Source: Alphaproteobacteria bacterium
Lineage (GTDB): Bacteria > Pseudomonadota > Alphaproteobacteria > CALKHQ01
Direction of reading: 5' to 3'
DNA length: 64,000 bases
Assembly: GCA_965227515.1 (NCBI GenBank)
Contig: CBDDFZ010000001.1
Span: 64,001-128,000, forward strand
A program made the translations under genes and the position numbers. Shown in pieces: positions 21,075-21,237 of the stretch. Under the pieces are notes generated by a model. The model saw only the letters and a program-made list of their open reading frames with translations, did not search any database and had not been told where the DNA came from. Position 1 is the first letter of the stretch. Each line of letters begins with the position of its first letter.

Positions 21075-21237
21075 TTGTGGCCGCTGCGGTTATTGTAGCG
21101 GTGGCGGAGACGGGTGGGAGGCCGCAAGGCCCTTGGTCTCGAAGACCGTGGGAGAGCTTGGCACCCTGCCTGTTGTTCCAATGAACCCGAACAGTCGCTT
21201 GGTCCGCCGGGCGAGACCGCATTTGCAAGGACGGGTG
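21075..21237 (+). ncRNA. Putative bridge RNA of the first IS110 (ends approximate)
   Basis: 5' hairpin 21081-21101; target guides GGCCCT (21128-33) and GGGAGAG (21150-56); donor guides ACAGTCGCTT (21191-200) and TGCAAG (21224-29). Confidence 0.75.

Follow-up and report, generated by a model that had tools for sequence, protein, structure and literature searches.

Among described insertion sequences of the IS110 family, the experimentally studied IS621 of Escherichia coli (Durrant et al. 2024, PMC11208160; Hiraizumi et al. 2024, PMC11208158) provides the main basis for comparison. According to PMC11208158, the active site of the IS621 recombinase comprises D11, E60, D102, D105 and S241, and a handshake rule applies at position 7; section 7 of the same paper describes G48 and G72 of the IS621 RNA as syn guanines. 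Single mismatches are poorly tolerated by IS621 (PMC11208160, section 8). For the IS110 family, PMC11208160 describes a promoter that is rebuilt across the junction (section 5) and names a subterminal inverted repeat as an IS110 feature (legend of Extended Data Fig. 10), and thousands of bridge RNAs were predicted there in 2024 (section 6).

The locus described here lies in a window of 64,000 nucleotides, positions 64001-128000 of contig C1 in a genome of two contigs and 5.52 Mb. The window element is a well-supported, ordinary further IS110-type bridge recombinase, and the initial annotation of the locus was right in substance. We are highly confident that the segment 21064-22187 represents an autonomous IS110-family insertion sequence that belongs to the IS110 group and carries a bridge RNA. 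At the level of sequence, the defining features of an IS110-group bridge system all appear to be present. From the raw letters the bridge RNA is readable one guide at a time, and this reading withstands the covariation test.

The insertion sequence, its recombinase and its target repeat

The element, its gene and its flanks have the following features (window coordinates):

21064..22187, + strand: IS110-group insertion sequence; four copies with common ends
21062..21063, + strand: left copy of the CT core; CT flanks both ends in 4/4 copies
22186..22187, + strand: right copy of the CT core; read from the sequence, copy comparison
22179..22185, + strand: left donor ACAGTCG, the final 7 element bases before the core; read from the sequence
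21238..22170, + strand: recombinase gene, 310 aa, with DEDD RuvC-like and Tnp domains; profile matches, alignment
21055..21061, + strand: left target ACCGGCC, the 7 REP-arm bases that immediately precede the core; junction read, copies compared
22188..22192, + strand: right target CTCCC; identical in 4/4 copies
22186..22250, no strand assigned: rest of the REP-like hairpin, with arms 22186-22207 and 22223-22244 (22 nt each) and loop 22208-22222; sequence, repeat census
13610..13623, + strand: empty REP arm ACCGGCC-CT-CACCC, mismatched with the right target guide at a single base; belongs to the 34 arms of the CT+CACCC type

The insertion sequence is on the plus strand and has a length of 1124 bp, which includes the right-hand CT core. 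The left junction reads caccggcc-CT|tgtatc, the right junction gacagtcg-CT|ctccc. Four full copies are present in the genome, with 0, 3, 12 and 12 differences from the window copy, and the similarity among them stops exactly at the 21064 and 22187 junctions. An identical CT dinucleotide is found at both junctions in all four copies, and empty arms read ..GCC-CT-CTCCC; judged from the copies and the empty arms, insertion occurs without any duplication other than the shared CT core. A 3-nt subterminal inverted repeat is formed by ACA within 22179-22185 and TGT at 21064-21066.

The left end of the element measures 174 nt (21064-21237) and the right end only 17 nt (22171-22187), and a structured RNA is located upstream of the open reading frame, which is why the element is assigned to the IS110 group. 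An IS1111-group element would carry the same protein domains and REP sequences are targeted there as well, with a guide RNA of the seekRNA type downstream of the open reading frame. The 17-nt right end, as compared to the 174-nt left end, leaves no room for such a downstream RNA, whereas a structured RNA with four guides upstream is the IS110-group layout according to the legend of Extended Data Fig. 10 in PMC11208160. We give the IS1111 reading next to no probability.

The encoded protein matches the Pfam families PF01548 (DEDD_Tnp_IS110; 79.4 bits, cut-off 29, residues 6-146) and PF02371 (Transposase_20; 78.6 bits, cut-off 21.3), as well as the NCBIfam model NF033542, 'IS110 family RNA-guided transposase' (230.6 bits, cut-off 140). 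A sequence search of the PDB returned only the transposases of ISCro4 (9t56, E 9.9e-40) and IS621 (8wt6, E 4.5e-37), both matching residues 3-307 of the 310-aa protein and thus nearly its full length. The residues D9, E53, D95, D98 and S234-G235 align with D11, E60, D102, D105 and S241-G242 of IS621, so that the five catalytic residues are kept. The identification of the protein as an IS110-type recombinase orthologue is borne out by these domains and by the alignment of the catalytic residues. Its description as compact does not set it apart, as 310 aa falls inside the range of ca. 300-460 aa given for IS110 recombinases in section 5 of PMC11208160. The open reading frame is intact in 4/4 copies, with one amino acid in each of the other three differing from the window copy.

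The insertion site of each of the four copies is a CT core in one of the two arms of a REP-like hairpin, and GGCTGG at 22245-22250 pairs with the left target from which it is now separated. The left flank ACCGGCC is found in only two of the four genomic copies, and CCAGCC in the other two. The CCAGCC arm is the other arm of the palindrome, which means that both orientations relative to the repeat are used, with two copies per arm type. In an Rfam scan the REP-like hairpin at the right flank of the element was also picked up by miRNA-precursor models.

A census in which the genome was searched with a pattern for the arm gave 224 empty REP arms:

CT+CTCCC: 142 empty arms (72 after CCGGCC, 70 after CCAGCC)
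CT+CACCC: 34 empty arms
Other variants: 48 empty arms

The four occupied arms are all of the CT+CTCCC type, so 4 of 146 perfectly matching arms are filled. The initial annotation had noticed an empty copy at 13617 that reads CTCACCC, and had proposed the mismatch to the right guide as a possible reason for its vacancy. The sequence of this arm (13610-13623) was read correctly. The mismatch is not needed to explain why the site is empty, because 142 perfect CT+CTCCC arms are equally empty, and finding 0/34 CT+CACCC arms occupied is what chance predicts at an occupancy of 4 in ca. 180. The mismatched base of the 13617-type arms plausibly does matter for specificity: close relatives with the guide GGGTGAG sit at CT+CACCC, i.e. 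this base covaries with the guide.

Structure and guides of the bridge RNA

In a minimum-free-energy calculation the RNA strand folds at -76.6 kcal/mol (z = -2.05 vs shuffles). The fold of the left end consists of a 5' stem-loop and two modules, each of which is an internal loop with a central hairpin:

21077..21105, + strand: 5' stem-loop of the bridge RNA; minimum-free-energy fold, length variable among homologues
21106..21179, + strand: target-binding loop module, an internal loop with a hairpin; fold, consensus, covariation
21106..21118 with 21165..21179, + strand: closing stem of the target loop, plus inner CCG/TGG at 21122-21124/21159-21161; family covariation
21135..21147, + strand: hairpin inside the target loop, ggtc tcgaa gacc; helices 6 and 7, 95-97% of cells paired
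21185..21236, + strand: donor-binding loop module with closing stem 21185-21189/21232-21236, an internal loop with a hairpin; helices 8 and 9, ca. 91% of cells paired
21201..21218, + strand: hairpin inside the donor loop; fold, consensus, covariation

For the comparison with homologues, 11 left ends were aligned and their RNAalifold consensus, minus the intra-loop pairs, was converted to a covariance model (R1). This was searched against 70 of 93 sources, i.e. the window and the loci L001-L092, the last two of which were added later; L001, L009, L010 and copies flagged as duplicates were left out. The search gave 74 matches at E <= 0.01, of which 58 are on the plus strand directly upstream of a homologous open reading frame. 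In the resulting alignment, which is fitted to R1, standard pairs occupy 91.3% of the cells, as compared to 71.3% in shuffles and 31-46% with slid partners. Compensatory changes on both sides are present in 28/33 stem pairs of this R1-fitted alignment, and the covariation check across homologues that the initial annotation had proposed thus supports the fold. Together with the co-variation of guides with target and donor in the homologues described below, it bears out the bridge-RNA architecture.

For the closure of the target loop, the letters of the proposed stem gggtg/caccc are present (21112-21116/21162-21166), but its register is unsupported and the shifted, longer stem listed above is favoured. 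The pairs 21118-21165, 21117-21166 and 21116-21167 of the longer stem are standard in 60/60, 57/60 and 58/60 rows, respectively, with swaps between G-C and C-G. A second alternative register, consisting of a continuous helix with one flipped base, was rejected, with the same three pairs standard in only 18/55 to 50/60 rows. The closure of the donor loop by acccg/cgggt was confirmed at 21185-21189/21232-21236.

A CCG precedes each of the four guides, in 49-50 of 61 rows for two of them, and the first two CCGs are 24 nt apart, equal to the G48-G72 spacing of the IS621 RNA. Three of the differences between the genomic copies fall inside the RNA; two are G-U vs G-C in stems (21115, 21171) and one is a hairpin-loop base (21210). 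Position 21121, which may be the counterpart of a flipped-out A of IS621, is G in all four copies and A in 40/61 homologue rows.

A scan of 20500-22700 with Rfam 15 at E <= 1 gave no match to a bridge-RNA family and none over the RNA on its own strand, and 14 homologous loci scanned with Rfam gave no match at E <= 0.01. The model RF02234 (sX15, an sRNA of Xanthomonadaceae) matched the minus strand only, with 26.4 bits (E 0.097) against a gathering threshold of 55 bits, and was rejected. As reported in PMC3300014, sX15 and its antisense partner asX7 are plasmid-borne and 10 homologues occur in a Stenotrophomonas chromosome; this distribution would fit an insertion sequence.

The four guide strings that the initial annotation had recognized in the left end (within 21075-21237) were all found at the claimed positions, and two candidate handshake guides can be added:

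21128..21133, + strand: left target guide GGCCCT, top-strand sense, 4 nt + core; sequence, family profile
21150..21156, + strand: right target guide GGGAGAG, exact reverse complement of CT+CTCCC; sequence, family test
21191..21200, + strand: left donor guide ACAGTCGCTT; identical 10/10 to the right end 22179-22187 plus the first left-end base
21224..21229, + strand: right donor guide TGCAAG; pairs with CTTGTA (core + left-end start), 6/6 with one G-T
21157..21158, + strand: candidate target-loop handshake guide (C, T); C can pair with G22185 at donor position 7 but not with C21061 at target position 7
21230..21231, + strand: candidate donor-loop handshake guide (G, A); G can pair with C21061 at target position 7 but not with the G at donor position 7

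In loop 1, caaGGCCCT (21125-21133) is identical at 6/9 positions to the left target plus core (5/9 for two copies) and is followed by a ggtc/gacc hairpin (21135-21138/21144-21147); loop 2 contains a ggtc/gacc hairpin at 21201-21204/21215-21218. In 200,000 mononucleotide shuffles of 21075-21237, the 7-mer GGGAGAG occurred in 2.9% and the donor 10-mer in 0.0065%, and the four guides were jointly present in 1/200,000 shuffles when the donor guide was counted as a 7-mer.

The relation between guides and DNA was examined in the 58 plus-strand R1 matches ending -10 to 130 nt from the match to the open reading frame. Element ends were placed without the use of guides: right ends by the pattern TTGA[CT]N + 13 nt + CT after the open reading frame, left ends by the conserved start of the element. 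A right end could be placed in 46/58 rows and remained unplaced in 12/58; the left-end start was unplaced in 14/58. Two loci with a false right-end match (L080, L071) were dropped from the guide tests.

For the right target guide, 39 unique cognate pairs were obtained, of which 27 match exactly at 7/7 positions (core + 5 flank bases), 11 at 6/7 and one (L051) at 3/7. The exact matches cover 18 different flank 5-mers. The cognate mean is 6.62, as compared to 3.93 for non-cognate pairs, where 18/1434 are exact. Complementarity is 0.86-1.0 through position 7 and ca. 0.25 beyond. The left target guide (5 nt + core) gave 42 unique pairs, 9 at 7/7, 18 at 6/7, 10 at 5/7 and 5 at 4/7, with a mean of 5.74/7 for cognate vs 4.05 for non-cognate pairs. 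Cognate identity is 0.82-0.98 at the core C and the next 4 positions in the window-7 registration and ca. 0.75-0.98 over three registrations; it is marginal at the fifth position (ca. 0.6) and shows no excess beyond, the re-registered null for the profile being ca. 0.47-0.73. The right guide of the clade is thus 7 nt long and its left guide is short (ca. 4-5 nt + core). Since the left guide is short across the clade, the 6/9 match in the window copy is typical and not a defect.

The left donor guide matches the element's own right end at 7/7 in 22 and at 6/7 in 4 of 26 unique pairs, with 8 different donor 7-mers; the rare donor variants ACGGTCG, ACAATTG, ACAGTCA and ACGGTTG are mirrored between the guide and the right end of the same element. 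For the right donor guide, both the guide and the left-end start are conserved, which makes the covariation weak and uninformative. The position-7 handshake pairing is possible in 34/36 unique loci for the target loop and in 30/36 for the donor loop, and the two target-loop misses proved on inspection to be anchoring errors of the script. These positions are mostly conserved and do not covary, and therefore carry little independent weight.

Alternatively, the 5' region might serve solely as a structured leader of the mRNA and control translation or stability of the transposase, with the matches to the flanks arising as a by-product of insertion into a GC-rich palindrome. The closing stem of the donor loop ends 1 nt before the ATG, and the sole Shine-Dalgarno-like string (AAGGA, 21227-21231) is inside the donor loop, so the fold could gate translation; moreover, the right target is a 5' hairpin arm and a complementary string could come from the repeat sequence itself. 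However, the guide strings lie inside the element and not in the repeat, and they track 18 different right targets in unrelated genomes, while the donor guide follows the element's own far end, ca. 1 kb away. A leader role is compatible with a guide role; that the region serves as a leader only is very improbable.

Putative junction promoter, proposed life cycle and translation

Two hexamers near the ends of the element could together form a promoter:

22167..22172, + strand: TTGACA, -35 of a putative junction promoter, overlapping the stop codon; read from the sequence
21066..21071, + strand: TATCTC, -10-like hexamer of this putative promoter; identical to TATAAT at 3/6 positions, function presumed

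By coordinates, joining of the right end to the left end places TTGACA 17 nt before TATCTC, a weak -10 that lacks a T at position 6. At the -10 place most homologues show TATNNT: among 42 unique left ends, TATCTT was found in 13, TATGTT in 8 and TATCTC in 6. The TATNNT consensus would agree with the rebuilt junction promoter of the family. A promoter scan of the linear context found no promoter-like site. A search for RNA runs that cover the locus gave none. In the matching DNA contigs, neither a joint spanning the element nor a junction of the circular form was seen. One contig of 1124 letters, covering 21084-22207, was considered as a circle and rejected, being explained by assembly breaks at repeats.

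The weak -10 is one of several observations that would fit a recent fossil, i.e. an insertion sequence that is a bridge-RNA element by descent and is now inactive in this genome. Only 4 of the 146 perfectly matching REP arms are occupied, all four copies have G instead of the commonly conserved A at 21121, and the genome contains two decayed left-end remnants. One of these, at C1:3870892-3870955, comprises 52 nt of the left end followed by a deletion; the other, at C1:1500199-1500301, is a fragment of ca. 100 nt with 83% identity. Against inactivity, the open reading frame is intact in 4/4 copies with at most one amino-acid difference from the window copy, the differences within the RNA keep its structure, all catalytic residues are present, and low occupancy is usual for insertion sequences. 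We consider the fossil reading quite unlikely.

Transcription, circle formation, RNA-protein binding and present activity of the element we infer, and the same applies to the terms 'programmable' and 'RNA is made' in the initial annotation. A life cycle can be proposed by homology with IS621. Excision of the element would yield a circle in which the CT core connects its right and left ends. The circle junction would put TTGACA (22167-22172) 17 nt upstream of TATCTC (21066-21071), with transcription predicted to start near 21078. The transcript would yield an RNA of ca. 160 nt (ca. 21077-21236) and continue into the recombinase open reading frame, and the RNA would fold into the 5' stem-loop, the loop for target binding and that for donor binding. 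In the donor loop, ACAGTCGCT(T) (21191-21200) and TGCAAG (21224-21229) would recognize the joined ends of the element itself. A synapse is expected to form between the recombinase dimers that occupy the two loops; within it, S234 and the DEDD site (D9, E53, D95, D98) would exchange strands at CT. The predicted outcome is insertion of the circle into one arm of a REP-like hairpin.

A further, tentative reading is that the clade represents a naturally occurring bridge-system variant with three linked peculiarities, namely targeting led by the right guide, use of one RNA for both arms, and autoregulation of translation; we regard this combination as possible but improbable. Target choice may depend mainly on the 7-nt right guide, with a short left guide of ca. 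4-5 nt + core. Since the right guide has the sequence of the target hairpin's 3' arm, it may have to invade that hairpin. One RNA may serve both arms, and hence both orientations, of the palindromic repeat. Finally, the only ribosome-binding string is hidden within the donor loop, whose end lies 1 nt before the ATG, and folding of the RNA or binding of the recombinase might therefore shut off recombinase translation in cis. If true, such translation coupling would be a general and apparently undescribed property, and not one peculiar to the window element, since E. coli relatives share the abutting layout.

Comparison with described bridge systems

The preferred reading of the locus, an ordinary IS110-type bridge recombinase, leaves existing knowledge unchanged, the NCBI family model already naming such proteins 'RNA-guided transposase'. 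What it contributes is a natural orthologue whose right target guide is naturally long and whose left one is short, encoded in a GC-rich genome that is alphaproteobacterium-like; this is a minor datum for the choice or engineering of bridge recombinases.

Among solved structures, the ISCro4 bridge recombinase (PDB 9t56) is the best match; it is a distant relative and was compared by its protein. Similar to the window element, ISPpu10 of Pseudomonas putida (10.64898/2026.03.19.712850) is an IS110 element found in many identical intergenic GC-rich stem-loop repeats. The ISPpu10 stem-loop is reported to be a 5' extension that serves as a second specificity determinant, whereas the window element uses a core that lies within the hairpin's 5' arm.

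When E. coli genomes were searched for distant DNA similarity, only ISEc32 and unnamed IS110-family genes were retrieved, and no IS621. In E. coli ISEc32 (L091) and a chromosomal IS110-family pseudogene (L092), the R1 matches end exactly at the start of the coding sequence, with scores of 18.9 bits (E 6e-4) and 37.4 bits (E 2.7e-8), respectively. DNA identity of these two loci to the window is ca. 65% over ca. 320 nt and is confined to the open reading frame, and the guides differ. The distance of ISEc32 from IS621 is at least as great as that of the window protein.

The window element, known from its sequence only, shares with the experimentally studied IS621 the two protein domains with the D-E-D-D and Ser-Gly catalytic residues (PMC11208160, PMC11208158). 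Both use a CT core and a REP-type target, and both possess a long left end in which a 5' stem-loop, a loop for the target and a loop for the donor are encoded. The left guides are read as top strand and the right guides as its complement, with the core in all four; a CCG(N) linker precedes each guide, with 24 nt between the first two; and the -35 is located in the right end and the -10 in the left end, both putative in the window element. Nevertheless, the proteins are distant (phmmer E 4.5e-37), with 310 aa in the window protein vs 326 residues in IS621, and the window RNA is shorter (ca. 160 vs 177 nt), as is its donor module (ca. 52 vs 68 nt). The right target guide of the window clade is naturally 7 nt long, whereas that of IS621 is described as 4 bp, with 7 bp as an engineered extension. 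Conversely, the left target guide comprises ca. 4-5 nt + core in the window clade and 7 + core in IS621.

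Target repeat and genomic setting of the main element

In the source genome, the only target of the 1124-bp main element is the REP-like palindrome, which has arms of 22 nt and is found as 224 empty arms genome-wide; in the window the repeat is seen at 13600-13680 and 22186-22250. The two arms of the palindrome are unlike in sequence context (..GGCACCGGCC vs ..CTGCTCCAGCC). The main element and its REP lie upstream of a long open reading frame, at a distance of about 90 nt, and downstream of a second one that is encoded on the same strand. The names given here are from inspection of the translations:

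18742-20970 (-), long open reading frame, resembling a class A penicillin-binding protein
22280-23023 (-), open reading frame, resembling a membrane protein

Left-end remnants and unusual copies

Two remnants of left ends were found at REP arms, at positions 3870892-3870955 and 1500199-1500301 of contig C1 of the source genome G000 (L005 and L006). One of these has 52 nt of the left end followed by sequence from the far side of the REP, which looks like a deletion; the other derives from a related element, whose left end is truncated here and shows 83% identity.

Among the loci homologous to the main element, L051 is the only one with a right flank that fails to match the right target guide of its own element (3/7 positions; L051:1338-1476 and L051:163-306). 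A second bridge-RNA copy, truncated and located about 1.1 kb further upstream in L051, has a guide that does match this flank. This pattern would be consistent with a rearrangement involving two related elements. Loci L021, L028 and L030/L031 (one MAG with at least 13 copies) retain the open reading frame as well as the donor loop and the right target guide.

Other IS110-family genes in the source genome

A second IS110-family gene, distinct from the main element, is present in the window at 59221-60339 (+). It is an open frame of 372 amino acids with a Transposase_20 match, and occurs in about 20 near-identical genomic copies. No bridge RNA was found upstream of this gene with R1, the covariance model built from 11 left ends. 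Because the gene is followed by about 350 nt of non-coding DNA (60340-60692), it may represent an element of the IS1111 type whose guide RNA lies downstream.

A third IS110-family type has two copies, G000:C1:1351017-1351268 and C1:1792881-1793132 (L007-L010). The identity is ca. 71-79% in parts of the open reading frame, and the R1 matches are only marginal (E ca. 0.004-0.01), on both strands.

A weak sX15 match opposite the bridge RNA

On the strand opposite the bridge RNA, positions 21104-21244 (-) matched the Rfam family sX15 (RF02234) weakly and below the threshold (26.4 bits, E 0.097). At 14 other loci homologous to the main element, no Rfam match was obtained at E <= 0.01. In Xanthomonas, both sX15 and asX7, which is antisense to it, are plasmid-borne, and a Stenotrophomonas chromosome contains 10 homologues (PMC3300014). 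The sX15/asX7 pair might correspond to the RNA of an IS110 left end together with its antisense transcript.
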